Below, in pieces: positions 5,202 to 19,683 of a stretch of DNA of 21,917 nt (positions within the stretch are counted from its first letter, which is position 1; the number at the start of each line of letters is the position of its first letter). The translations under genes were made by a program, and so were the position numbers. The notes beneath the pieces are model-generated. The model made no database searches, was not told where the DNA came from, and worked only from the letters and a program-made list of their open reading frames with translations. This DNA is from Parcubacteria bacterium GBS-2 (GTDB lineage: Bacteria; Patescibacteriota; Minisyncoccia; Minisyncoccales; GBS-2), in assembly GCA_001443025.1 (NCBI GenBank), contig LEKP01000007.1:1-21917 (forward strand), given 5' to 3'.

Positions 5202-5330
5202 ATGTCAATAACTTATCAACCAAACAAAAGAAAACGAAAAAAAACTCATGGATTCCTCGCGAGAAAAAAAAGAAAGGGGAAGATTTTAAAAAGAAGAAGA
5301 AAAAAAGGAAGATGGCAACTTACCCCCTAA
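5202..5330 (+). CDS. rpmH: 50S ribosomal protein L34
   Basis: Manual translation gives [42 protein letters not shown] (42 aa), a clear L34 signature. It is absent from the ORF track because of its size. Its 3' end overlaps the rnpA start. Confidence 0.82.
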
Positions 5331-6728: not shown

Positions 6729-7031
6729 TTATTTTCCAACCGCTCCAACTAAATTTGCGATTATTTCCGCAAGCGCAATGATTACAAGACCGAAAATTGC
6801 TGCATAGATTCGGTCTTTAGCGTTTGAAATTTGTGATGGATTTCCACCTGATGTCATCCATAAAAAACCTCCAATGACAATCATTAAAACCGCACCAGCA
6901 ATAGCAATATTTCTGATTAAATCACCAATTTCTTCTAAAACACCAATTCCACTTGTTGTGGTCGCTCCGCTTGCGGTAAAAGCTGAAAAAGAAAAATAAG
7001 TCAAAAAAAAGAAAAGGAAAATTTTTTTCAT
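6729..7031 (-). CDS. Small secreted two-helix membrane protein; TrbC/VirB2-like pilin candidate
   Basis: 100 aa: N-terminal signal peptide, then two hydrophobic helices separated by the TSGGNPSQISNAKDR loop. It is the last gene of the VirB4-containing operon and is related to the C-terminus of the 1375-aa protein. Confidence 0.4.
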   Translation of the reverse strand: MKKIFLFFFLTYFSFSAFTASGATTTSGIGVLEEIGDLIRNIAIAGAVLMIVIGGFLWMTSGGNPSQISNAKDRIYAAIFGLVIIALAEIIANLVGAVGK

Positions 7032-7042
7032 AAAAGTCTATA

Positions 7043-8839
7043 TTATCCTATACCTTTTTCCATTTTTATTTTCAAGATTTGTTCAGGAGAACTTGTTACT
7101 ATTTGATCTTCAGTGTACGAAGCAACAACTTTCATTAAAACATGTTTTTGACCTGCAAAAATTATTCCTTCACCAACCTCTGTTTCTAACAAAAGATATT
7201 TTTCTTCATCAGTTAAGTTGAAGGTTTTCTGGACAATATCAATAGTTGCTGGAGATTGTTTAAAAAGAACAACAATTGAAGAGTTAGTAATAATTGGCTG
7301 TCCATAGGCAGATTTCATAAAATCTCCTACATCTTGGGTAATAGTTGTGACTCCCAACCAATATTTTCTGCATCTTTTTACCATTCCGTACAAGAACGAT
7401 GCTCCATCTTCTTCTTTCATTATCCACCAAGCTTCATCAACTATTAAAATCCTCTTTTTTAATTCAGATCTTACTTTATTCCAAATGTACCTCATAATGA
7501 TAAAACTTGCGATTGGCCTCAATTCATCTTCCATATCTCTTATTCCAAAAACGACTAATGGTTTATCTAATTCTACATTGGTTCTTTGATTAAAGAATTG
7601 GGCAAAAGTTCCTTTTGTAAATCTTCTTATTCTTCTAACTAAAGACTCAGCCCCCTCCATTCCTTCTAATACTTTTTCTAAATCTTCCATAATTGGTATT
7701 CTTTCCTTCCAGAATTTTGGATTGGTGTGAGGGGTAATATCCTTCGCTGCATAAGTTTCAGTTATTGCCTTATCCATAATTGAATCTTCTTCTGGGGTTA
7801 GTCCACCGAGCATCATTCTCATTAAACCAACAAGGTTAATTACATTCGATCTTAGCACATCTCCTGGACTTTCATCTTCTCTTGGAGTTGGCAAATCAAA
7901 GGGATTAATATGGTGAGGGGACCCCAAAGAGATATTCAAAAACGATCCTCCAACTGCCTCAGCCAACATTTTGTATTCATTTTCAGGATCGATAACTATC
8001 ACATCAATTCCTTGCATTAAAGATCTCAAAATTTGTAACTTCACATAATAAGATTTTCCAGAACCTGAAGTACCAAAGACTACTTCATTTGCATTTTGCA
8101 TAGAAAACCGGTCAAAAAGAATTAAAGAATTGTTATGGCGGTTGAGTCCATACAAAATTCCTCTATTAGAACTTAGGTCTAAAGAGACAAACGGGAAGAT
8201 TGTCGAAAGAGGAGCTGTGTTCATTGGAGTTAAAACCTGAATCTGGTCTAATCCATATGGGATACTAGAATGAAATCCTTCTTTTTGCCTGAAAGTTGCA
8301 GGCTTTATATAAATAAGTTTTGATTCAAAAATAGACCTTAAAACATTTTCAATTTCTTTCAATTCTTTTTCGGAATTTCCATACACATTCAAATAGATTC
8401 CAACTTTAAACATCTTTTCTTGAGCGGTAATTAATTTATCCCTTAACTCTTCTAAATCCCTATAGGCTATTTCTAATTGCGGATCTCTAATCAATCCTTT
8501 CTCTTCTTTTTCGTGAATTTCAGCTAAAATTTCAGTTAGTCTTTTTCTAATTTGTTTTAAAATCATCTCTGAGGAAAATGGATAAATATGAATGCCGATG
8601 TCGAAAGGAACATCAAGGTTTATTATCGAAGAAAGCCAGGCGGTGCTTAAATACCTTGGATAAGAAAAGAGAAAATAAGATTTAGAAAATCTTTTCCCAA
8701 TTCTTAAAAAGTTACTCCCCAAATAAATTGAAGAAGGAGCAACTATATCCTTTGTTGTAATTTCTTCTCTCTCAAAAATCTTTTCAACTTCTATATCCTT
8801 TTTAATATCCTTTTTGGAAAACAAAAATGGAATTTTCAT
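7043..8839 (-). CDS. VirB4/TraC/CagE-family type IV secretion ATPase, central plus ATPase portion
   Basis: 598 aa. Walker A FGTSGSGKS. Walker B ILIVDEAWW, with the family-typical DEAW. Central segment YPRYLSTAWLSSIINLDVPFDIGIHIYP resembles the conserved VirB4 region of Gram-positive conjugative ATPases. Confidence 0.7.
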   Translation of the reverse strand: MKIPFLFSKKDIKKDIEVEKIFEREEITTKDIVAPSSIYLGSNFLRIGKRFSKSYFLFSYPRYLSTAWLSSIINLDVPFDIGIHIYPFSSEMILKQIRKRLTEILAEIHEKEEKGLIRDPQLEIAYRDLEELRDKLITAQEKMFKVGIYLNVYGNSEKELKEIENVLRSIFESKLIYIKPATFRQKEGFHSSIPYGLDQIQVLTPMNTAPLSTIFPFVSLDLSSNRGILYGLNRHNNSLILFDRFSMQNANEVVFGTSGSGKSYYVKLQILRSLMQGIDVIVIDPENEYKMLAEAVGGSFLNISLGSPHHINPFDLPTPREDESPGDVLRSNVINLVGLMRMMLGGLTPEEDSIMDKAITETYAAKDITPHTNPKFWKERIPIMEDLEKVLEGMEGAESLVRRIRRFTKGTFAQFFNQRTNVELDKPLVVFGIRDMEDELRPIASFIIMRYIWNKVRSELKKRILIVDEAWWIMKEEDGASFLYGMVKRCRKYWLGVTTITQDVGDFMKSAYGQPIITNSSIVVLFKQSPATIDIVQKTFNLTDEEKYLLLETEVGEGIIFAGQKHVLMKVVASYTEDQIVTSSPEQILKIKMEKGIG

Positions 8840-9453
8840 GAAATTATTTCTGGAGGAATTTCAGGATAGTAGCCGACTTCAGCTTCTTCGGGATGATAGA
8901 TTGACCAGAAAAGCTCGATTAACTCCTGAGTATTAAGAGGAGCGCAAAAAAGCCCACAATTTCGCAAACCATGAGCAACAAATTCCAATCTTTGCCAAAG
9001 TTGAGTTTTCGCTCTTTCAAACTCCTCATCGCTTAAATCTCGAGTTTTTCTTTTAGCACTCGGTATTAGTACCGGAAAGAAGGGAACCACAACGTAAAAA
9101 TTTTTATTCATAATAAAACCACTTCCAACTAAACTTTTTATAAAATCTATGTAAGATCGAGTTTGAATTTTTAAAAGTTCGTTTGGCTGTTTTCTTTCTA
9201 ATTCCTCCAACTCTTCTAAGTAACCAGTTAAGTTTAATCTTCTTGATTGAACGTAAATTTGAATTTGGAAATCTAAAGAATTTAAAAAATTTTGAAATTG
9301 ATAAATTATTGCGTTTTGTTCTTCTTCAGATTTCAAGGAAAAATTTAAAGAAGAAACAGCTAAAACTCCTCTCAATGATTTATCTTTCAAGATTAAAACT
9401 CCCTCTTTAATTTCTTCTATTTCTAAAAATTGTTGAGTAGTTAATTGTGGCAT
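8836..9453 (-). CDS. VirB4-family N-terminal domain protein, a separate ORF coupled to the ATPase ORF
   Basis: 205 aa. LAVSSLNFSLKSEEEQNAIIYQFQNFLNSLDFQIQIYVQ resembles the N-terminal region of Gram-positive VirB4-like proteins. Its TGA overlaps the next ATG as ATGA at 8836-8839. Confidence 0.5.
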   Translation of the reverse strand: MPQLTTQQFLEIEEIKEGVLILKDKSLRGVLAVSSLNFSLKSEEEQNAIIYQFQNFLNSLDFQIQIYVQSRRLNLTGYLEELEELERKQPNELLKIQTRSYIDFIKSLVGSGFIMNKNFYVVVPFFPVLIPSAKRKTRDLSDEEFERAKTQLWQRLEFVAHGLRNCGLFCAPLNTQELIELFWSIYHPEEAEVGYYPEIPPEIIS

Positions 9454-9852
9454 TTATTTTTTTGTTTCAAGATTTTCAATTAAATTTCTCAACGCTCCTT
9501 CTTTTTTAAGTTTTATTTTTTCTCCGCCCATTTTTTTTATTTCCATTTCTCCCACAAATAAAGTCTGGGTTCTTTTTTTTCCCCATAAAATTACCTTTGG
9601 CGAAAAAAGAAACTTTAGCTGTGCCAGAATATAAGCATAAAGAGGAAGCTCTTCTTTTTTCATAGCAATTAAAAATATTGCAATTACAAAACATGAAAAA
9701 GAAACTGGAAAAGCGATTGAGCGAGGAAGGGAAGTATAAAGTAAAAGACAAATCATTCCAATTGTTAAAGCATAAATTAATTGTTTAAACGTTAAAGGAC
9801 CAACAATTTTTGCCTCAGTTTCGGTAAATTGTGGAAGAGTCACCAGAGGCAT
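9454..9852 (-). CDS. PrgI/VirB3-like small membrane protein
   Basis: 132 aa. N-terminus LPQFTETEAKIVGPLTFKQLIYALTIGMICLLLY followed by a second TM helix. It sits directly upstream of the VirB4-like ORFs with no gap, as in Gram-positive T4SS operons. Confidence 0.5.
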   Translation of the reverse strand: MPLVTLPQFTETEAKIVGPLTFKQLIYALTIGMICLLLYTSLPRSIAFPVSFSCFVIAIFLIAMKKEELPLYAYILAQLKFLFSPKVILWGKKRTQTLFVGEMEIKKMGGEKIKLKKEGALRNLIENLETKK

Positions 9853-9918
9853 ATTTTTATTATAGCATTTTTGTATACAAAGCGAAACATCATTTTTTGC
9901 TTCTGGATCACCAGATGA

Positions 9919-9947
9919 TTGACAAATTTTTTCAAATTTGATATAGT
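9919..9947 (+). promoter_or_regulatory. Sigma70-like promoter TTGACA-17 nt-TATAGT for the SPFH gene
   Basis: TTGACA 9919-9924, TATAGT 9942-9947, then AGGAGG at 9961-9966, 8 nt before ATG 9975. Confidence 0.5.
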
Positions 9948-9974
9948 TTAATTAGCTCATAGGAGGTGAAGAAA

Positions 9975-11111
9975 ATGTGGTGGATTGGGATTGGAATCTT
10001 AGTGATTGGAATACTGTTTGTTTTGTGGAAATCCTTCACAATAGTGGAAGAAGGTACAGCTAAGGCAGTGATGAAGCTAGGTAAATTCGATAAAATAATC
10101 TTTCAATGGGAAGGACATTGGATGGACAAAGACTGGAGTATTTGGTACGAGGGAGAAGAAGGGGCGCCAGATAGGAAAAAGGCCGAAAATAAAGTGTGGG
10201 GGAGAGTTTTCGGGAGTCTTTGGTTTTATGGAATTTGGCCAATTCACAGAATTTATGAATATACTCTGCGGTGGACGGACTTTCATAGAGTAATCGAAAA
10301 GGAAGGAAGCATTGAGAAAGTCCAATTTCATGAAGAAAAATTAGACCATGTACTTCTAAAGCCCGCTGTTTACTGGACAAAGATTTTTTCCGCTGAAACC
10401 ACACCTCCAGAGAGAATTCCAGTAAATATCGAAGTGTTAGTGACAATGAGAGTTTTTAATCCTTACCGCTTTCTATTCATTGCTCCACCGACGCCTATTG
10501 AAGATGTATTGGCTCGAATAGATGCTTTGATCAGAGAAAGAATCGCTCATTTGACAGTCGATAAAATTCTTCGGATAAGAACCGAAACTTTATGGGAAGG
10601 GTGGGAAACAGAAGATGAAAAAATTCCAGGATTAAAAGAGGAAAAACTAATCAAAGAAACCCTCCAGAGATGGGGAATGAAGATTGCTGAAAAAGGAGTG
10701 GATGTAAAAAAAGTTGAATTCCCCAAAGGATACGCTGAGGCTTTAGCAAGACGAAGGCAACTTGAATTAGAAGCAGAAGCAAAGAGAACAGAGTTTAGAA
10801 TATTATCAGAAGCAAGAGCAGCTGAGATTATGGGAACTATAATCGAAGCTATAGTAGTCGCTACTGGACTGCCAAAAGAGGAAATTCAAAAAGAATTTAC
10901 AAAGGATCCCGAAGCTTTTTATGAAAAACATAAGACCATTATCGATAATGTAATGACAAAGCTTTCAATGGAAGAGAGAGCATATTTGAGGATAGAAACG
11001 CCAGGGGCAACTGGAGCATTAGGAGATCTCATTAGACTTATTGGGGCCTGGCAAAGAATGCCAACAGGAAAAAAAGAAACTGAAACTACAAGAGGAGATT
11101 TGTTTTATTAG
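9975..11111 (+). CDS. SPFH/band-7 (stomatin/HflK-like) domain membrane protein
   Basis: N-terminal TM helix then FTIVEEGTAKAVMKLGKF. Later IPVNIEVLVTMRVFNPYRFLF...IEDVLARIDALIRERIAHLTVDKIL is typical SPFH core. A strong RBS favours ATG 9975 over the track's GTG 9966. Confidence 0.5.
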   Translation: MWWIGIGILVIGILFVLWKSFTIVEEGTAKAVMKLGKFDKIIFQWEGHWMDKDWSIWYEGEEGAPDRKKAENKVWGRVFGSLWFYGIWPIHRIYEYTLRWTDFHRVIEKEGSIEKVQFHEEKLDHVLLKPAVYWTKIFSAETTPPERIPVNIEVLVTMRVFNPYRFLFIAPPTPIEDVLARIDALIRERIAHLTVDKILRIRTETLWEGWETEDEKIPGLKEEKLIKETLQRWGMKIAEKGVDVKKVEFPKGYAEALARRRQLELEAEAKRTEFRILSEARAAEIMGTIIEAIVVATGLPKEEIQKEFTKDPEAFYEKHKTIIDNVMTKLSMEERAYLRIETPGATGALGDLIRLIGAWQRMPTGKKETETTRGDLFY

Positions 11112-11129
11112 TTTTTTACCTCCTCTTTT

Positions 11130-11564
11130 TTATTCTATTGGCTCTCTGTAAATATCCTCTTTTGGTGGAGTTGTTGGTTTTTCTAAAATTTTCTTTTTCT
11201 CTTCTGGTGCTATTAAGAACACTCTTTCTTTAATTTCTTTTGCAATTTTTTCTGCCATAAAGAGAGATAAATTCAAATCCTTTCTTAAAAGAGAAGATAG
11301 GTCTTCAAGAGAACTTTTACCCGTTAAAATTTCTTCAAGCCTATCCATTATTTTGTTAAAAGGCAAATTCTCTATTATTTTCGTTGCTTCTTCTGGAGTT
11401 TTTGCACTCTTTAACATTTCCTCTAATTCTTGATTATCAAATAAATCGGTTGGCCCAAGGTTATATTTTTTAACTATTTCAACGATTACATCGATATCCT
11501 CAGATGAAAGAAATTTTTTTTGATTTGGATTGTATTTGATCATGCTTATAACCTTCTTTGCCAA
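11130..11564 (-). CDS. Hypothetical acidic soluble protein (144 aa) within the T4SS-like block
   Basis: Clean ORF with no TM segments. It overlaps the upstream VirB6-like gene by 19 nt. I recognise no motif. Confidence 0.4.
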   Translation of the reverse strand: MAKKVISMIKYNPNQKKFLSSEDIDVIVEIVKKYNLGPTDLFDNQELEEMLKSAKTPEEATKIIENLPFNKIMDRLEEILTGKSSLEDLSSLLRKDLNLSLFMAEKIAKEIKERVFLIAPEEKKKILEKPTTPPKEDIYREPIE

Positions 11565-13747
11565 ATAGCATCACCTATTTTTTTTATTATTTCTGCTTTA
11601 TTTACATCCAATGGATCAGATGATTCTCTTAGCGTGTCAATTGTGTTTCGAATTTTTTCATGATTTTCAGATACATCTTTTCTGAGGTTTTCTCGCGTAG
11701 AAGTTGTCAGAGTAATTCCGGTCTTTTCTGCTATTATTTTTGTATAACTTTCTACCAGGGCATCTTTTTGTTTTATAGTTCCTGCTCTTATTATTCTCTC
11801 AATGTGGGTGGGTGACATTGCCGAAACTACTTCAGGATCCATGATGGCTTTCGGTCGGATTTTTATTACATCCTTTGGAGTTATTTCATCAAGGATATCT
11901 TTTGGGGTGAAGGGTCTATTAGTTTTAGGATTAATAAATTCAGGAGCCAAGTCAACTCTTAATTTTAGAACATCATTTAGATACTTACCACCTTCTTTAG
12001 TTCTGAGGAATTTTTTAAATTCATCCTTTTCTATTAAATCATCAGAAAGTTTTCCTTCCTCAAGTAATTTCTTTGTTGCCTCTCCTTTTGCAATTTCACT
12101 TGTCCATCTTGACCTTATCATTTTTTCTAACCCTTCTTTTCCGTGTTTTTTGTAAACTTCTTCTATTTCTTCCCTAGCCCTTTTCCTTTCTAATTCTTCC
12201 ATCCTTGCCTCCATCTCTTTTTTAATTCCTTCTCTTCCTAAGACTACCATTCTCTTTGTCCAACCCACTCCTTTTTTAATGGATTCCACAGTCTCTATTC
12301 CAGGTTTAAATGGTTCAGGCATTATTTTCCCCAATTCTGGTGGAATCTCCGATAATGCCATAGATAATGCACTTCTTCCTATTCTCGGTCCTACTCTTGC
12401 CCACTCTTTTCCGAATGCTTTAACGCTAGCTCCAAAAGCACTTCTTCTGGAGACCCCCGCTAGACGAGCTGCTCCCCAGGCACGAGTAGCTGCTCCTACG
12501 CTTGCCATTGCACCTCCTAATGCAAAGGTTCCAGCAGTAATAGCGACAGTCGTTGCAAGTTTTACCATTCCAATGGCTGATTCTACAGCCTGCTTTACAA
12601 CTCCAGGAGAAGTTTTTACTCCAATGTGAATGGCAAGCGCAAAAGTTAAAGCGGGTAAAAATTTAATTAATTGTTCTGCAATGAAACCTATTTCTTGATT
12701 ACAAACATTATTGATATCCGTATCTTCCACATTACACGAGGTATTTAATTTAAAATCTAGTTCCTTTGTGATTCCTAATAATAATACTCCTACTTTCAAC
12801 CAAATCAACAAAATAACTCCAATAAAAACCCACTCTAAGAAAGTGGCCCACCACCCATCCCAATTTAAAAACCCACCAAAAATCTGTCTAATTTCTCTAG
12901 TTCGCAATCCTGCAGTTAAAAAGGCAATTGGCGAAACTATTACAAGACAAGTTAAAAAAACTAACCTTAGCACAAAGACTATCCCTAAGGCCAAAAGAAC
13001 AAAGGAAATGTAGATACTTATTAATCCTAAAATCAAGGTTGAAAGCGAAATCAGAGCAAAAATTACATTATCTTTTGTAAAAAGCGTTTGGAGATCTGTA
13101 AATGTAATAAAACGATCAAAAGTGGTTGAGAGGTGGCTTATTAGTGCATTTAAAAGAGTATCATAAATTTCAGTTAAATCTGTTCCTAAATACCCCTCCG
13201 TGCTTCCTCCAACTCCTAATGCAGTACTTATAAAATTTGTTAAAGCATTTCCCCAAGAGATTAATGTTGTTGATATGGGGAAAGAAAATGAAACTAACAG
13301 AGCTGATATTATTAACGGAACTAAAGTTTTCCGTGCGTCATATTCAAATATTCTAAAAATTGTCGCCACACCTATTAAAAGTAAAAAAATTCTTACAAAA
13401 CTCAAGGCGAAATCTTTTACAATTTCCCAAGTTCCCAGGAAACCTTTAAAAACCGTTTGGTTTAACCCCAAATCTATCAATGCATTTACAAAAGGAGGGA
13501 CAATTAAACCTCCAACGAAGATAGCGATTACACCGATAAAGAAACCTACTATAGCTAAAAAGAGAAACGGAAGCCTAAAAAGAAAAGAAATTAAATACCC
13601 AATGGGTGCGCCCAAGCCAAGTGTACTCAAGAGAGAGATGATTATTTCACCAAAATCAGAAACATTAAACGCCTTTACAACTTTGGGGAAAAGGAAAAAT
13701 ATAAAAAGAGTGAAAAAGAAGAAAAGTTGTTTAATGGTTCTTTGCAT
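11546..13747 (-). CDS. Polytopic membrane protein with Ala/Gly-rich and coiled C-terminal domain; VirB6/TrbL/TcpH-like candidate
   Basis: 733 aa. Signal-like N-terminus, at least 6 predicted TM helices in the first ~400 aa, then GTFALGGAMASVGAATRAWGAARLAGVSRRSAFGASVKAFG and a charged helical tail. Its position relative to the VirB3/VirB4-like genes follows the Gram-positive T4SS order. Confidence 0.4.
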   Translation of the reverse strand: MQRTIKQLFFFFTLFIFFLFPKVVKAFNVSDFGEIIISLLSTLGLGAPIGYLISFLFRLPFLFLAIVGFFIGVIAIFVGGLIVPPFVNALIDLGLNQTVFKGFLGTWEIVKDFALSFVRIFLLLIGVATIFRIFEYDARKTLVPLIISALLVSFSFPISTTLISWGNALTNFISTALGVGGSTEGYLGTDLTEIYDTLLNALISHLSTTFDRFITFTDLQTLFTKDNVIFALISLSTLILGLISIYISFVLLALGIVFVLRLVFLTCLVIVSPIAFLTAGLRTREIRQIFGGFLNWDGWWATFLEWVFIGVILLIWLKVGVLLLGITKELDFKLNTSCNVEDTDINNVCNQEIGFIAEQLIKFLPALTFALAIHIGVKTSPGVVKQAVESAIGMVKLATTVAITAGTFALGGAMASVGAATRAWGAARLAGVSRRSAFGASVKAFGKEWARVGPRIGRSALSMALSEIPPELGKIMPEPFKPGIETVESIKKGVGWTKRMVVLGREGIKKEMEARMEELERKRAREEIEEVYKKHGKEGLEKMIRSRWTSEIAKGEATKKLLEEGKLSDDLIEKDEFKKFLRTKEGGKYLNDVLKLRVDLAPEFINPKTNRPFTPKDILDEITPKDVIKIRPKAIMDPEVVSAMSPTHIERIIRAGTIKQKDALVESYTKIIAEKTGITLTTSTRENLRKDVSENHEKIRNTIDTLRESSDPLDVNKAEIIKKIGDAIWQRRL

Positions 13748-13760
13748 TTTTATTACTTTT

Positions 13761-16700
13761 TTACCATCCTGGTAAATTGAGAGTTTTTCCGATTAAATTA
13801 ATTATCGTCCAAGAAAAAAGCATGATCAACCAACCAATTCCTACTGCTTTCCAAATTGATTTTGCTCTTTCTATTTCTTCAGAAGATCCAAACGAAAAGT
13901 AAAATCTTATTCCAGTATACAAAAGCAAAAAGACTACAGCAATGGGAGAAAGCGTCCATAAAATACAATTTAAAATATTTGCCACGACCTTTGGAATGTC
14001 AGCAAAAGTACAATTTGAGCAATGAATGAAATTTTTGCAAGTTCCAAAACCTACTTGGGCAGATTCTCTTTTTTCGTATTTTTTAGTTACAATCTCAAAC
14101 GATGCTAAATAAGACCAAGCTCCTGCTTCTTGGCATTCTGAAGAATAATAACAATCAACACAATCTAAATAACAATTTCCATAATCTTCTTTTCCTTTAC
14201 ATTCTGTTTCACACTCTGCGGGGGGTTTGCATTCTTCTTTTCTTTTGCCACAATTTTCACCGGTACAGTATTGGATTTGGTAATAATAATTTCCAAGGCA
14301 TACATTTGTACTTATTCCCGTTTTTTCGTCTTTAATAATTTCAGTGGAGGTGGGTAAAAGAGAATTATCAAGCGTATATTTCCCATTTTCAGCCAAATCT
14401 TCCTTTGTTAGAATTTTGTCAAAGACGAGAAAAGAACTTTTCGCTTTCTCTATGCAATCTTTTCTTTTTTCAAACATTCCTCCTTTGTAAAAAATTTTTA
14501 AATGAGTACAATCTGCTCCTTTTGGAATCGGAGCCCACGAAAGAGATATTTCTTCATTAGGAAGAAATTGAACTGATCCTAAAAGTTGATTAGGAGGATC
14601 TAAATAGTAACCAAAAACAGGACCAAATTTTTCACTCCATTCTCCACACTGTAAATAAGAAGGGTCATCTTTGCTACACATATCAGCGCAAGTTTTTACT
14701 TGCCAGTAATACGGAGTATCCTCTTCTAACCAATCAACCCAAAGGTTGGATTTAAGAATAGCTACTTGAGTGAGATCTGGATGAAAAATTGTTTTAACCT
14801 CATTTTCATTTTTAAAAAATTTAATCCAATAAGAAGCTGCGCCCAAAGATGCATCCCAGTTGAAATAATGAGGAATTTTTATCTTTTTGGGCGGAGGGGG
14901 ACCTGAAATTTCTTCTTTGAAAGGAGACTGGGGAGGTTCTCCAGTGATTTTTACTTTTTGATCAACATGATCACTTAAGCAGTAAAATCCCATCTCATCT
15001 GAACAAGGGTAAAAGTAAAATGTGAATTCTTTCTTCAGTCTTGAAATTGCATCATTAAGTGGTGGAAGAGAATTCCAAAATTCCCATACTTTGAAGTTAA
15101 AAGAAGTAGATTGGGTTGAAGATTTTGGGAGATATTCCACAAAAGATTTTTCATTTTCATCTTTAATTTTTAATCTTACTGATAAAAATCTCTCAATTCG
15201 TGGAAGTTGAAGAGCCTGGGTTCTATAGATTCCGAATCTTTTGTTTTCTTTGTCAAATTCTTTTTCTGGAGCTAAATATCCCTTAACAGATTTTTTGATC
15301 ATTTTATATCCCACCGGATACTGATCTTCTCTTTCTCCAAAACAACTATCTTGCTCATAATTGCACAAGTGGGTTTTTGGAAGAGTTGTTATATAAAAAT
15401 CCCACCTTAATCCTGAACCTTTATTTGGCACTCCAACAATTACGCTATTTGGAATAAAAGAAGAAAATATTGGTGAGAATTTATCTTCTTCCCACCAGGG
15501 TTGAGGTGTCCAAGGAGTTCCAGTTTTTAAAGAAAAAGGGACCCAATAAGTTTTCTTGCTACCGTAGTCTCCGAATTCTGCGTACACATCCCTTACTACT
15601 TCTAATTCTTCAACCTTATATCTTTTAGTAGAGACTAATTTGTTGTTTTCAAATTTATCATAAAATCCTAAAGGAACAGCCCCAATACAGGTGGTGGTTT
15701 GATAAGGAGGTGAGAGGGCACATTCAAAAGAAGAGAAAGGAAAACTTGCAGAAGTATCTGTTGAAATTCTAAAAGTTGGATATTGAAAGAACTTGTCGAC
15801 GATTAAAGATGACTGGCAAGCAGAAGTTTCTGTTCCGTCTTTTTGATATTTGTAACAATTACAGGGATTCTCTTGACAAAGAGAGGTAGATGTTACGTTT
15901 TCACATTCTTGTTTGGGTTTTTCTTGAAAGAAAGATTGAAGAGGAAATGCTTGATCTTCTTTCCCTTTATAAAAAGGCGCTACAAACGAGTCAGGGTAAG
16001 AACACCATTCAACATCTACATAGTCAACTTTATATTTACACCGTTTGCATTTCTCACAAATCTCTCTTTTTCCTTGATTATTCAATTTGTGACATTCTCC
16101 ACGAAGAGCAATTAAGTCTAACTCTGGGTTTTTACCACAAAGATCTTGGCAATTATCATCAGGACCTTCATCATATTGATCAAACTCTACACCCCACATA
16201 TAAAAGGAATTGAGCCCAAATTTTTCTCTGACAACTTTACTTGGCCAGACTCTATCCCAATCAACATCAATGAAACGATAAATTTTGCCCCTTTCTTTAA
16301 TGATTTCTTTGGAATCATAAGAAGTCGTTGCAATTTCTTTTATTCTAATTCCCAAAATTGACTTTATTTCAGGGCCTAAAGTATAAAAGTTCCAATCTGT
16401 TTCATTCGGTTCTGTAGGGGCAATAGGAGAACAGTTTTCAGGATCAAGCCCACAACAAGGATAAACTTTCAAGCGATAATTTTGGAAGGGAGATATTTTA
16501 CAAGGCCCTTGAATTCCTGGTTTGGTAAGTTGAACCTCTTTTGTTAAATCGTTTTCATTTGGATCTTTATACTCTATCCAACGGTAAGTTCTTTTGCTAT
16601 CTTGGGAGGGAGAGTAGACATAGAGATAATAGTTTTTTCCTTCATGTTGAAAATATCCTGGAAAACCGTAATTACGCATTTCCCTTGGATAAAATTTTGT

Positions 16701-17888
16701 ATCGCTCAAAAAATAATAATCAAAGTAATCATACATATCTTTTCTTGAGAAAGAAGAGTATAAAGGTTTTTGCCACTCTGGGAGACTCTTTCCTTCCGCA
16801 ACATACAAATGTCTAGTGAGATAGTCTGCTCCGTTTTTCTCAATTTTGAAATAAAAAGACCCCACCCCTAACCCTCTAATCAAAGAATACGTGTTATCAT
16901 CAGTTTCAAATTCAAATAATTTAAACCTTCTATCAAATTCCTTTTCCCCTAAAACTTTTTCTTTTAAGATTTTTTTAGCTTTTTTCTCATCGAGTTGAGA
17001 ACAGTAAGTACAATCTCCACCTCTTCCTTCTTTACAATTTTTACATTCTTCCTTTGCCTTTTCTATTGCCTCTTCCCATTCATCTATTCCTGTCTTTTCT
17101 TTTTTAAATTCCCAACCAAACTTAGCTGGCAATCTTAAAGCAGAGGGATTTTGTTCTTCGTTCTCTATCCTTCCTTCCCATTCTCTTTTTGGATTTATTG
17201 AACCACCGAAATAATGAGGATATTTCACCGGATCTAAACATTTCCCCCAACAAGTTACTTGTACGATGTCAAAGAAACGAGAGTCTCTGTACACGTGCCA
17301 ACAATCTTCTCCGCAATCTTCACTTCTAACTTGTCGAGAAGTATAGGCATAAAAATCGCCATATTCATCATCATCATCAAAAATCGGAGGGAACCAAACT
17401 ACTTCATCCACCTCAGGGCAGTCCCCTTCAGTACATTTAATTTTTGAATACGGATAATTTAAACTCCCCCCTGCTTTTTTAATTCTCTCTTTCTCTGTAG
17501 AGGTCAATTTGTCATACCTGTAAGTGCAAACTAACCAAGGAGTTTGGGAAGTATCGAAATTTTTTTTTGTTGGAGAAGAAGAGGACCAACTTCCACAACT
17601 CCACTCAGTACACCCTACACCACAAGTACAGCAACTGCGGGAACAACTTCTCGTTACCTCTCTTTCTAAAATTGTAATTACTCCACCACAAGCTCCTAAT
17701 GTGCACTTGTGTTGGATTACTGTTTGTTTTTCTGTTTCTGTCCAGCACACAACTGTACATCCTCCATTTCCTTCACCTCCATCACCTCCATCACCTCCTC
17801 CACCACCGTTTTCAGCAAAAACAAAGTGAGAATTGAGTAGGAATAGTGCAAAAGTGAAAAACAGTATTAGAAAAATTCTATTTTTCAT
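13761..17888 (-). CDS. Giant secreted cysteine-rich protein (1375 aa) with C-terminal pilin-like two-helix membrane domain
   Basis: Signal peptide MKNRIFLILFFTFALFLLNSHFVFA. Poly-Gly/Asp linker. About 60 Cys by manual count. The C-terminal ~75 aa form two hydrophobic helices around GSSEEIERAK and are similar to the 6729-7031 protein. Its start overlaps the rsmA stop. Confidence 0.75.
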   Translation of the reverse strand: MKNRIFLILFFTFALFLLNSHFVFAENGGGGGDGGDGGEGNGGCTVVCWTETEKQTVIQHKCTLGACGGVITILEREVTRSCSRSCCTCGVGCTEWSCGSWSSSSPTKKNFDTSQTPWLVCTYRYDKLTSTEKERIKKAGGSLNYPYSKIKCTEGDCPEVDEVVWFPPIFDDDDEYGDFYAYTSRQVRSEDCGEDCWHVYRDSRFFDIVQVTCWGKCLDPVKYPHYFGGSINPKREWEGRIENEEQNPSALRLPAKFGWEFKKEKTGIDEWEEAIEKAKEECKNCKEGRGGDCTYCSQLDEKKAKKILKEKVLGEKEFDRRFKLFEFETDDNTYSLIRGLGVGSFYFKIEKNGADYLTRHLYVAEGKSLPEWQKPLYSSFSRKDMYDYFDYYFLSDTKFYPREMRNYGFPGYFQHEGKNYYLYVYSPSQDSKRTYRWIEYKDPNENDLTKEVQLTKPGIQGPCKISPFQNYRLKVYPCCGLDPENCSPIAPTEPNETDWNFYTLGPEIKSILGIRIKEIATTSYDSKEIIKERGKIYRFIDVDWDRVWPSKVVREKFGLNSFYMWGVEFDQYDEGPDDNCQDLCGKNPELDLIALRGECHKLNNQGKREICEKCKRCKYKVDYVDVEWCSYPDSFVAPFYKGKEDQAFPLQSFFQEKPKQECENVTSTSLCQENPCNCYKYQKDGTETSACQSSLIVDKFFQYPTFRISTDTSASFPFSSFECALSPPYQTTTCIGAVPLGFYDKFENNKLVSTKRYKVEELEVVRDVYAEFGDYGSKKTYWVPFSLKTGTPWTPQPWWEEDKFSPIFSSFIPNSVIVGVPNKGSGLRWDFYITTLPKTHLCNYEQDSCFGEREDQYPVGYKMIKKSVKGYLAPEKEFDKENKRFGIYRTQALQLPRIERFLSVRLKIKDENEKSFVEYLPKSSTQSTSFNFKVWEFWNSLPPLNDAISRLKKEFTFYFYPCSDEMGFYCLSDHVDQKVKITGEPPQSPFKEEISGPPPPKKIKIPHYFNWDASLGAASYWIKFFKNENEVKTIFHPDLTQVAILKSNLWVDWLEEDTPYYWQVKTCADMCSKDDPSYLQCGEWSEKFGPVFGYYLDPPNQLLGSVQFLPNEEISLSWAPIPKGADCTHLKIFYKGGMFEKRKDCIEKAKSSFLVFDKILTKEDLAENGKYTLDNSLLPTSTEIIKDEKTGISTNVCLGNYYYQIQYCTGENCGKRKEECKPPAECETECKGKEDYGNCYLDCVDCYYSSECQEAGAWSYLASFEIVTKKYEKRESAQVGFGTCKNFIHCSNCTFADIPKVVANILNCILWTLSPIAVVFLLLYTGIRFYFSFGSSEEIERAKSIWKAVGIGWLIMLFSWTIINLIGKTLNLPGW

Positions 17889-18702
17889 TTTTGAAAGTTT
17901 TTGCTAATTTTTTCCAATCTTCCACAGATAAAGATTCCGCTCTTTGTGTAGGCAAAATTTTATTCTGTAAAAGCCAGGCCTTTACTTTATTTTTATCAAA
18001 GCCCAACGTTTTTGATAAGTTATTTATCAATTGTTTTCTAGGGCGAGAAAAACCTGCTTTTACGATTTTAAAAAACAAATCACGAAAGTGTGATTGATAA
18101 AATTTCTTTGTGGGGTTGATTTTTATTATCGCAGAATCAACCTTTGGAGGTGGCCAGAAAGATTTTTTTGAAACAAAAGAAATAATTTCTGGTTTTGCAT
18201 AAAACTGAACAGCAACCGCTAATAAACTCATTTTGGGAGGCTTTGCACAAATTCTCTGAGCAACCTCTTTTTGTACCATTAGCACAATAAGTTTTGGCTT
18301 ATTTTTAATTTCCAAAAGGTTTCTAATCAATCGCGAAGTCAAATAATAAGGAATATTTGCCACTACTTTGTAAGGGGTGGCCAATTTAAAAAAAGAAAGA
18401 AATTTTAAAATATTCTCGTTTACGATCTCCACATTTTCTATCCCTTCTTCCTTTAATCTTTCTTTTAAAATTTCAATCATTCTTTTGTCTTTTTCTACCG
18501 CAATTACTTTTTTTACTTTCTTTGCTAATTCAACGGTTAAATTCCCAATTCCAGGACCTATTTCTAGAACAAAGTCTCTTTTCGTAAGTTCAGCAGATTC
18601 TACGATTTTTTTCAATACTTTCTTGTCAATTAAAAAATTTTGTCCTAATCTTTTCAATGGATGGACTTGATATTTTCGCAAGATTTCCTTGACATTTGAC
18701 AT
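17878..18702 (-). CDS. rsmA: 16S rRNA (adenine1518/1519-N6)-dimethyltransferase
   Basis: 274 aa. LGQNFLID, SAM-binding VLEIGPGIGNLT, typical KsgA length. Confidence 0.9.
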   Translation of the reverse strand: MSNVKEILRKYQVHPLKRLGQNFLIDKKVLKKIVESAELTKRDFVLEIGPGIGNLTVELAKKVKKVIAVEKDKRMIEILKERLKEEGIENVEIVNENILKFLSFFKLATPYKVVANIPYYLTSRLIRNLLEIKNKPKLIVLMVQKEVAQRICAKPPKMSLLAVAVQFYAKPEIISFVSKKSFWPPPKVDSAIIKINPTKKFYQSHFRDLFFKIVKAGFSRPRKQLINNLSKTLGFDKNKVKAWLLQNKILPTQRAESLSVEDWKKLAKTFKNEK

Positions 18703-18732: not shown

Positions 18733-19683
18733 ATGAGTAAAAAGAAAACCTTTTTGATTTTGATAGCCTTTTTCTTATTTTTACCTCTAATTTTTAGTTT
18801 AAGGAAAAAAGAAGTTAAAACAGAAAAGGAAGTTTACGTTGCTCCGCCCTTTGCTTCTTCGAAAACCTGGCAGAACCTTCCAGATTTTATTTTTATTGGG
18901 AACAATTTCTTAAAGTTTTCTCTACCACCCGCCTTTGTGAATGGAAAAACGTTGGCAGCGATTGTTGAGGATTCTGAACAGAGAAAAGAAATTCAAGAAT
19001 ATATTGTCGAAGATGGAGATACCCTTTCTTCAATTTCTCAAAAGTTCAAAATTTCAATTGAAACAATTGCATGGGCAAACAATCTTAGCAAAAGATCAAC
19101 TCTTAAGCCCGGCCAAAAGCTAATAATTTTGCCAGTCGATGGAATTTTGCACGAAGTCAAAGCAGGAGATACCATTTCTGAAATTGCAAAGAAATATCAA
19201 GCAAAGATTGAAGATATTATTTCTTTTAATGAGCTTGAAAGTCCAGATGATATTTATATTGGCGATATTTTAATCATTCCTGGTGGGAAAATGCCATCTC
19301 CAAAACCTACTCCGCAACCTTTGACTCCCCTAGCCCAGGGCTATTTCATTTGTCCAGTTGCTGGAGGTTGCAGAATTACTCAGGGGCTTCATTGGTACAA
19401 TGCAGTCGATTTTTCAAACGGAAAATGTGGAGAAGCAATTTTGGCAGCTGCAGGAGGAACTGTTTTGAAAGCAGGATGGAATAGGACAGCAGGAAACTAC
19501 ATTAAAATTTTGCATCCAAACGGAATAGTCACAATGTATGGTCATTTGCAAGCAATCTTTGTTTCTCCTGGAGAGAAAGTTTCTCAAGGGCAAATTATTG
19601 GAACAATGGGGGCAACTGGCAGGGCAACAGGTTGCCATTTACACTTTGACGTTTTCGGAGCAAAAAATCCTTTTGCTAAATAG
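18733..19683 (+). CDS. LysM-LysM-M23 family peptidoglycan endopeptidase
   Basis: N-terminal anchor or signal. Two LysM repeats (YIVEDGDTLSSISQKF..., HEVKAGDTISEIAKKY...). M23 core with HxxxD and HLH motifs (HWYNAVDF...GCHLHFDVF). Confidence 0.85.
   Translation: MSKKKTFLILIAFFLFLPLIFSLRKKEVKTEKEVYVAPPFASSKTWQNLPDFIFIGNNFLKFSLPPAFVNGKTLAAIVEDSEQRKEIQEYIVEDGDTLSSISQKFKISIETIAWANNLSKRSTLKPGQKLIILPVDGILHEVKAGDTISEIAKKYQAKIEDIISFNELESPDDIYIGDILIIPGGKMPSPKPTPQPLTPLAQGYFICPVAGGCRITQGLHWYNAVDFSNGKCGEAILAAAGGTVLKAGWNRTAGNYIKILHPNGIVTMYGHLQAIFVSPGEKVSQGQIIGTMGATGRATGCHLHFDVFGAKNPFAK

Follow-up and report, generated by a model that had tools for sequence, protein, structure and literature searches.

What kind of apparatus is encoded by a conjugation-like gene block that lies among housekeeping genes, with neither a relaxase nor a coupling protein in view? 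This question is raised by a stretch of 21,917 nt from Parcubacteria bacterium GBS-2 (assembly GCA_001443025.1, contig LEKP01000007.1; hereafter the window), in which an initial annotation, made from the letters of the DNA, had recognized components of a Gram-positive-type type IV secretion system (T4SS) and had proposed a chromosomally fixed secretion or pilus apparatus rather than a mobile element. For this genome, the analysis covers the 21.9 kb of the window; in look-ups by exact protein, ComM and VirB4 led only to contigs of 6.5-11.6 kb that fall within the window, and the PBP1A product had no record. Within it, the proposal holds: the block is very probably a vertically inherited, chromosomal T4SS of Patescibacteria (candidate phyla radiation, CPR), which lies beside the dnaA/dnaN-rpmH/rnpA/yidC/jag cluster of a low-GC, Paceibacteria-type genome and would serve as a non-conjugative host-contact apparatus. 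T4SSs of this kind are already known from Patescibacteria (Quinonero-Coronel et al. 2025, PMC12102498; Wang et al. 2023, PMC10633639), and the initial interpretation is therefore an independent rediscovery of a system that both papers describe.

Components and layout of the T4SS block

The list of open reading frames (ORFs) and their translations contains every minus-strand T4SS gene at the position where it had initially been placed. The secretion-related features are as follows.

6729-7031, minus strand: VirB2-like T4SS pilin, 100 aa (PF18895 T4SS_pilin, 1.4e-13, 51.1 bits against a cut-off of 26.6)
7043-8839, minus strand: VirB4-family ATPase, 598 aa (NF045971 CD1110-family VirB4, 7.1e-116, 388 bits against a cut-off of 325)
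8836-9453, minus strand: TrsD-like protein, 205 aa (NF041427 TrsD, 9e-6; NF045971, positions 2-171; VirB4_plasma, positions 104-233)
9454-9852, minus strand: PrgI/VirB3-like membrane protein, 132 aa (PF12666 PrgI, 5.3e-8, 33.7 bits against a cut-off of 27; TcpE, 6e-4)
11130-11543, minus strand: small soluble protein, 137 aa, starting at Met8 of a 144-aa ORF (11130-11564) and ending in the tail D-x-Y-R-E-P-I-E
11546-13747, minus strand: extended VirB6-like polytopic membrane protein, 733 aa (orthologue matches, slot and topology)
13761-17888, minus strand: giant Cys-rich secreted protein, 1375 aa (signal peptide; tandem FN3/Ig-like domains in an ectodomain rich in disulfides; pilin hairpin at the C-terminus)
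13791-13988, minus strand: T4SS_pilin (VirB2-like) domain, residues 1301-1366 of the giant protein (PF18895, 3.7e-6, 27.3 bits against a cut-off of 26.6)

The 598-aa protein is a VirB4 ATPase of the MPF_FATA type. It carries a Walker A motif (GTSGSGKS) and a Walker B motif (ILIVDEAW), also matches P-loop_TraG and AAA_10 in Pfam, and is similar to two proteins of known structure in the PDB, namely the solved C-terminal domain of a Gram-positive VirB4 (4AG5, 1.5e-40) and TrwK of R388 (6e-6). It has more than 8000 homologues, and among the best 120, at 72-100% identity, the few that are named by source are of the CPR/Paceibacterota type (Candidatus Paceibacterota, Candidatus Nealsonbacteria). The preceding gene encodes a TrsD-like protein that is homologous to the N-terminal domain of long VirB4s, and its end overlaps the start of virB4 (ATGA); on identical contigs, the protein has a precomputed assignment to PF26593 (TraC-like). 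The initial annotation had spoken of a split VirB4, and the family assignment was correct, whereas the notion of a split by frameshift was rejected: TrsD and VirB4 are distinct ORFs in 78 of 80 related loci, which makes their separation ancestral, a pair of genes rather than a broken one. The PrgI/VirB3-like nature of the 132-aa protein, which contains two hydrophobic segments, was likewise borne out by its score above the family cut-off.

The signal-peptide, pilin-like protein of the initial annotation is a T4SS pilin encoded directly downstream of virB4. It has the architecture of the VirB2/TrbC type, with a signal peptide, a first transmembrane (TM) helix at residues 35-63, a short basic loop (TSGGNPSQISNAKDR), and a second TM helix at residues 73-100. 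Its match to TrbC/VirB2 (PF04956; 1.5e-5, 25.6 bits) remains just under the cut-off of 27.9, and it weakly matches NF045849, a pilin-like family from integrative and conjugative elements (ICEs) of Mycoplasma.

The 733-aa protein, initially described as VirB6-like, is indeed polytopic and consists of a TM domain extending to about residue 380, an Ala/Gly-rich linker (residues 383-507), and a helical C-terminal domain (residues 510-733). Proteins occupying the same slot in related loci are tied to it by BLASTP (E < 1e-5), and when these orthologues were scanned singly, 4 of 41 matched TrbL/VirB6 (best 1.8e-8) and three matched TrbL_4. Because the BLASTP-linked orthologues match TrbL/VirB6, VirB6 homology is accepted for the window protein by transitivity, as the weakest of the assignments made here. 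The linker (12227-12601, minus strand; …GAMASVGAATRAWGAARLAG…) is predicted to be disordered, with a predicted local distance difference test (pLDDT) score below 50, and divides the TM domain from the confidently predicted helical C-terminal domain.

All the genes initially assigned to the block lie on the minus strand, but they do not form the single run that had been described, since a plus-strand SPFH/Band-7 gene, previously overlooked, interrupts them. The T4SS block therefore consists of two co-directional units. Operon 1 comprises rsmA, the gene of the giant pilin-anchored protein, the extended virB6, and the gene of the small tail-motif protein, and operon 2 comprises prgI/virB3, trsD, virB4, and the virB2-like pilin gene. 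The features that divide or flank these units are the following.

9853-9965, no strand: divergent intergenic region between prgI (minus) and the SPFH gene (plus), likely the promoter region of the prgI-trsD-virB4-pilin operon
9966-11111, plus strand: SPFH/Band-7 membrane-scaffold protein, 381 aa (PF01145 Band_7, 1.6e-9; N-terminal TM segment)
17878-18702, minus strand: RsmA/KsgA 16S rRNA dimethyltransferase (TIGR00755, 1.1e-75, 254 bits against a cut-off of 171)
18733-19683, plus strand: LysM-LysM-M23 peptidoglycan endopeptidase (LysM, 3e-28; Peptidase_M23, 1.3e-27; signal/anchor segment)

The rsmA gene runs in the same direction as the giant gene, and the two overlap by 11 nt at the start of the latter, as can be read from the junction sequence and as the initial annotation had indicated. 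The SPFH gene occupies this slot, in this orientation, in 12 of the 80 related loci and is a variable accessory gene. Upstream of its start, the best promoter-like match of the region (9919-9947, plus strand; extended -10 type) consists of TTGACA, a 17-nt spacer, TG, and TATAGT, with 11 of 12 positions matching, and is a consensus match only; across the window, the counts of terminators and promoters equal the expectation from shuffled sequence.

Chromosomal position and relation to known systems

The fixed position of the block becomes apparent when related loci are compared. A scan of GTDB species representatives with the VirB4 profile gave 80 loci, all from metagenome-assembled genomes (MAGs) of Patescibacteria (Nealsonbacteria, Staskawiczbacteria, Minisyncoccales, and "Parcubacteria"), with VirB4 identities of 58-80%. 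Their common order runs from ComM through LysM-M23, RsmA, a variable large protein, the VirB6-like protein, a small protein and/or SPFH, PrgI, and TrsD to VirB4, followed by pilin proteins, Jag, YidC, RnpA, DnaA, DnaN, PBP1A, and YebC. Of the 53 loci that extend 8 kb or more beyond VirB4 on its downstream side, 50 have Jag, 50 YidC, 50 DnaA, and 49 RnpA; of the 47 that extend as far on the upstream side, 43 have PrgI, 36 the VirB6-like protein, 34 RsmA, and 30 the LysM-M23 gene, whose adjacency is conserved. Many of the related MAGs, which derive from "binchicken" co-assemblies, are titled "uncultured Candidatus Saccharibacteria"; these titles look generic or wrong, since the MAGs show Paceibacteria-type synteny and their VirB4 proteins share 60-76% identity with those of Nealsonbacteria and Parcubacteria MAGs.

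In the window itself, which is AT-rich (GC about 0.26-0.39), each scanned ORF is a T4SS gene, a housekeeping gene, or a gene without family match, the housekeeping products being YebC, PBP1A, DnaN, DnaA, L34, RnpA, YidC, Jag/KhpB, RsmA, LysM-M23, and ComM. Profile searches with Pfam and NCBIfam detected no relaxase, VirD4/coupling protein, VirB11, or integrase among the ORFs of the window, in agreement with the initial annotation, and neither tRNAs nor Rfam families were found in it. A comparison of the block with its flanks, which the same annotation had proposed, gave a match in both respects: the T4SS genes and the housekeeping genes on their flanks show correlated synonymous codon usage (r = 0.983), and the GC content at third codon positions is 0.25 in the former and 0.21 in the latter. 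The location next to oriC that had been suggested is inferred from the dnaN-dnaA/rpmH-rnpA-yidC-jag arrangement alone; DnaA boxes of the E. coli type show no enrichment in any part of the window. A 42-aa ORF between dnaA and rnpA (5202-5330, plus strand), which overlaps the start of rnpA, encodes ribosomal protein L34 (rpmH) and completes the classical origin-proximal gene set.

These observations bear directly on whether the block could be an ordinary ICE, or the decaying remnant of one, whose relaxase and integrase lie just beyond the window. Such an origin would accord with a VirB4 that scores above the cut-off of the CD1110 conjugal-transfer family and with a gene order that resembles those of pCF10 and Tn916-type elements. 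However, universal housekeeping genes stand on both flanks in an order shared by dozens of species, there is no break in composition or codon usage and no tRNA or integrase, the genes are all intact and conserved across species at the VirB4 identities given above, and relaxases occur near virB4 in only 15 published cases (PMC12102498). The usual marks of a mobile-element context, namely integrase or replicon genes, atypical composition, and patchy distribution, are absent, the position being fixed across 80 species, and the set expected of a conjugative MPF_FATA element of the pCF10, Tn916, or pCW3 type (relaxase, oriT, and VirD4/TcpA) is lacking from the window. Because the housekeeping synteny is fixed in related loci and the codon usage matches the flanks, an ordinary ICE is excluded, and the possibility is effectively refuted.

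The block instead agrees with the T4SSs described for Patescibacteria, from which it shows no essential difference. In a survey of 3,035 Patescibacteria genomes (PMC12102498), VirB4 formed a monophyletic clade nested in MPF_FATA; TrsD was the most abundant VirB4-associated component, accompanied by PrgI/VirB3 and VirB6 homologues, and VirB2-like pilins (PF04956, PF18895) were located near virB4 in 1,135 assemblies. Relaxases were nearly absent in that survey, and dnaA, dnaN, rnpA, ksgA, and rpmH were enriched around virB4 in Paceibacteria and Microgenomatia. The window shares with these systems a VirB4 of MPF_FATA ancestry with TrsD directly beside it, PrgI/VirB3, VirB6, and a VirB2-like pilin near virB4, no relaxase or type IV coupling protein (T4CP) nearby, and a location beside dnaA, dnaN, rnpA, and ksgA. 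In Southlakia epibionticum, transposon sequencing showed that epibiotic growth requires the T4SS cluster SEML1_0006-0019 together with its pilins, and this cluster is likewise without a recognizable coupling protein or relaxase (PMC10633639). While Saccharimonadia possess arrays of six pilins, the window encodes one minimal pilin and one giant pilin-domain fusion. A 2025 review (PMC12857230) regards the T4SSs of Patescibacteria as unique among monoderms in their essentiality and in their potential for conjugative-type pili.

Comparison with more distant systems places the block further. The MPF_FATA prototype, the Prg/Pcf system of Enterococcus faecalis pCF10, has a CD1110-family VirB4 and the same order of VirB6, VirB3, and VirB4 (PrgH-PrgI-PrgJ), as the initial annotation had pointed out. 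Unlike the window, it also has the PrgK hydrolase, PrgL (VirB8-like), the PcfC coupling protein, and the PcfG relaxase; its relaxase and coupling protein lie within about 12 kb of prgJ, whereas none occurs in the 21.9 kb analysed here. Moreover, pCF10 carries LPXTG adhesins and no pilin, whereas the window encodes VirB2-like pilin domains, and the N-terminal domain of VirB4 is a separate TrsD gene in the window but not in pCF10. The claim that a pilin is foreign to monoderm systems applies to pCF10 but needs qualifying for Mycoplasma ICEs, for which NCBIfam has a pilin-like conjugal-transfer family: there, a pilin-like protein (Mbov_0395) is found beside VirB4 (Mbov_0397) in a monoderm, as in the window. 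The window PrgI, TrsD, and VirB4 cover the 894-residue VirB4_plasma model consecutively (30-117, 104-233, and 280-892), so that parts fused in one protein on a mobile ICE in Mycoplasma correspond to three genes here, although the window proteins fall below the cut-offs of the Mycoplasma families (VirB4, 282 bits against 590; pilin, 17.9 against 40). Compared with R388 Trw and Agrobacterium VirB, the window has no recognized VirB5, VirB7-VirB11, or VirD4 and belongs to a single-membrane organism; sequence identity to TrwI of R388 is 8%.

Pilin fusions, the small tail-motif protein, and the wall peptidase

The giant Cys-rich secreted protein had been recognized as such from the outset, and its 62 Cys residues (4.5%), a hydrophobic, signal-like stretch at the N-terminus, and two TM helices at the C-terminus confirm this description. 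The additional finding is that the C-terminal helices form a T4SS_pilin domain, the one Pfam domain of the protein, which is likewise precomputed or detected in its homologues. BLASTP revealed no similarity between the two pilin domains of the window (E 1.7), and each matches PF18895 independently. The Cys positions are conserved across 15 homologues of 1110-1741 aa. In an AlphaFold2 (AF2) model of residues 579-1375, a run of β-sandwich domains predicted at pLDDT 80-90 precedes a Cys-rich segment and, at the end, the pilin hairpin with its two helices, and Foldseek relates the model to FN3/Ig arrays (E 1e-7 to 1e-5). One homologue of 1741 aa, P0155, bears an N-terminal Peptidase_M23 domain (1.1e-24).

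Similar fusions recur in the related loci on both sides of the T4SS genes. Downstream of virB4, there are often one to four proteins of 350-2075 aa in which a signal peptide and an N-terminal pilin-like domain precede a long, often Cys-rich extension (up to 6.9% Cys), and proteins in the slot upstream of virB6 carry their pilin domains at the C-terminus. Examples of the large ORFs are L062:6655-12915, L049:12298-15966, and L032:12167-13921 downstream of virB4 and L007:1924-4065 upstream of virB6. Of 93 pilin-fusion ORFs of at least 300 aa, 49 were matched directly by phmmer with the 100-aa window pilin, and the remainder only after iteration with our own hidden Markov model (HMM). When large proteins with N-terminal pilin domains were re-scanned with Pfam, one of six reached PF18895, and the N-terminal fusion architecture thus rests mostly on phmmer and the iterated HMM. 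These matches suggest, but do not prove, that the fusion of pilin domains with large and often Cys-rich proteins is a general trait of these relatives. N- and C-terminal fusions alike have a topology that puts the extension outside the cell. One further locus contains a stop-to-stop ORF of 1813 aa (L028:5359-10797) with an N-terminal pilin-like domain and a weak match to YebC/TACO1 at residues 1384-1468 (28 bits), which may reflect read-through by chance or an artefact of assembly.

The second conserved constituent is the small protein encoded between virB6 and the SPFH gene. The initial annotation had listed it as a hypothetical protein of 144 aa; the ORF exists, but the gene called on identical contigs encodes 137 aa and represents a genuine family, with 75 representative homologues (E < 1e-3), all of 72-203 aa. 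In their alignment, a variable linker joins a helical N-terminal domain to an extreme C-terminus that is invariant, D-x-Y-R-E-P-I-E. Among 8273 ORFs in the loci, 43 end in this motif, about one per locus, in the slot between the VirB6-like protein and PrgI (for example, L008:8484-8927 and L044:6553-6999). The family has no relatives in Pfam, NCBIfam, or the PDB and no similarity to PrgF of pCF10. Conservation of a peptide at the C-terminus of a soluble protein is suggestive of a docking motif, a role that the tail could play here. The main text and supplement captions of the published descriptions do not discuss this protein or the SPFH gene, nor do they describe pilin-domain fusions to large Cys-rich proteins.

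The LysM-M23 peptidase had been put forward as a possible supplier of cell-wall hydrolase function. Its conserved adjacency, together with the fusion of an M23 domain to the giant homologue P0155 (a Rosetta-stone relation), hints at a link between the T4SS and a wall hydrolase, and the enzyme is on these grounds a candidate for the wall hydrolase of the system (a VirB1 analogue), which remains a hint.

Proposed function and competing explanations

Taken as a host-contact apparatus, the system might work as follows. PrgI and TrsD would dock a hexameric VirB4 ATPase on a VirB6-based channel within the single membrane, and VirB4 would pull VirB2-like pilin hairpins out of the membrane. These would be assembled into a pilus or a surface structure in which the giant Cys-rich FN3-stalk protein is contained or displayed. 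The apparatus would thereby mediate contact with a host cell and the transfer of material to or from the host, rather than conjugative DNA export. In Gram-negative systems, VirB4 acts as a pilin dislocase in pilus biogenesis.

Several points weigh against this reading. Both pilus formation and the dislocase role of VirB4 are extrapolated from those Gram-negative systems and would apply here by analogy. The part of the VirB6 claim that did not stand concerns direct similarity: the window protein has no direct match in profile searches of Pfam, NCBIfam, and the PDB, hhalign of its profile against PrgH of pCF10 found no similarity, and Foldseek with its AF2 model (mean pLDDT 65, about 70-80 in the TM region) was negative. 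No VirB8-like or VirB1-like gene was recognized inside the block, and a distant T4CP or relaxase may be encoded elsewhere in the genome, beyond the 21.9-kb view. Finally, a 2024 perspective (PMC11665869) calls the function of these T4SSs "completely unknown" and mentions effector delivery and DNA uptake.

Both of these functions can be considered against the block. In an effector translocator, the T4SS would serve to co-opt a bacterial or archaeal host by injecting proteins, as pathogen T4SSs do, a function that has been proposed for Saccharibacteria (PMC11665869, PMC10633639). The missing relaxase argues away from DNA export and so accords with such a role, and the Ptl and Brucella VirB T4SSs function without a coupling protein (PMC12102498); on the other hand, the window contains no coupling protein or recognizable effector, and the sole conserved soluble candidate, the small tail-motif protein, could equally be an adaptor, which leaves effector injection a possibility that we consider rather unlikely. 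Operation in the inward direction is also conceivable, with the T4SS importing DNA or nucleotides, like ComB of H. pylori or the archaeal Ced system, and scavenging host DNA for an organism deficient in nucleotide synthesis. The perspective cited above raises this option, 15 of the related loci have ComM, from a helicase family associated with transformation, as a conserved neighbour, and T4SS loci of the ABY1 class adjoin comF, recG, and radA (PMC12102498). However, the ComM adjacency may be simple chromosomal synteny, and the weak similarity of VirB4 to the DNA-import ATPases CedB (1.2e-14) and CedD (1.3e-8) lies far under the cut-offs and reflects general VirB4 homology. The block also contains no DNA-binding or ComEC-like component, and in S. 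epibionticum deletion of comEC abolishes competence but not viability, whereas the T4SS is essential (PMC12857230). Nucleic acid import is accordingly judged improbable. The sequence data do not separate import, effector injection, and host-contact functions.

Within the preferred reading of a host-contact apparatus, the pilin fusions allow a more specific proposal, which we advance only tentatively and hold to be doubtful as a whole. The VirB2-like pilin hairpin may be a portable module for export and anchoring, such that the T4SS, through its VirB4 dislocase and VirB6, would mainly extract and display large, fast-evolving, disulfide-rich pilin fusions, for instance the 1375-aa FN3-stalk protein or the version with an M23 peptidase in a relative. 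The conserved cytoplasmic tail-motif protein would then be an adaptor that docks onto the ATPase, and the displayed fusions would form a host-specific attachment or wall-attacking surface structure.

The T4SS of Patescibacteria is essential in S. epibionticum, the sole genetically manipulable species of the group. The window does not reveal a new kind of system; it provides a compact Paceibacteria example that is relevant to how epibionts engage their hosts, and to which three points contribute: the giant Cys-rich FN3-stalk pilin fusions, the small protein with an invariant tail, and a wall peptidase linked to the system by synteny and fusion.

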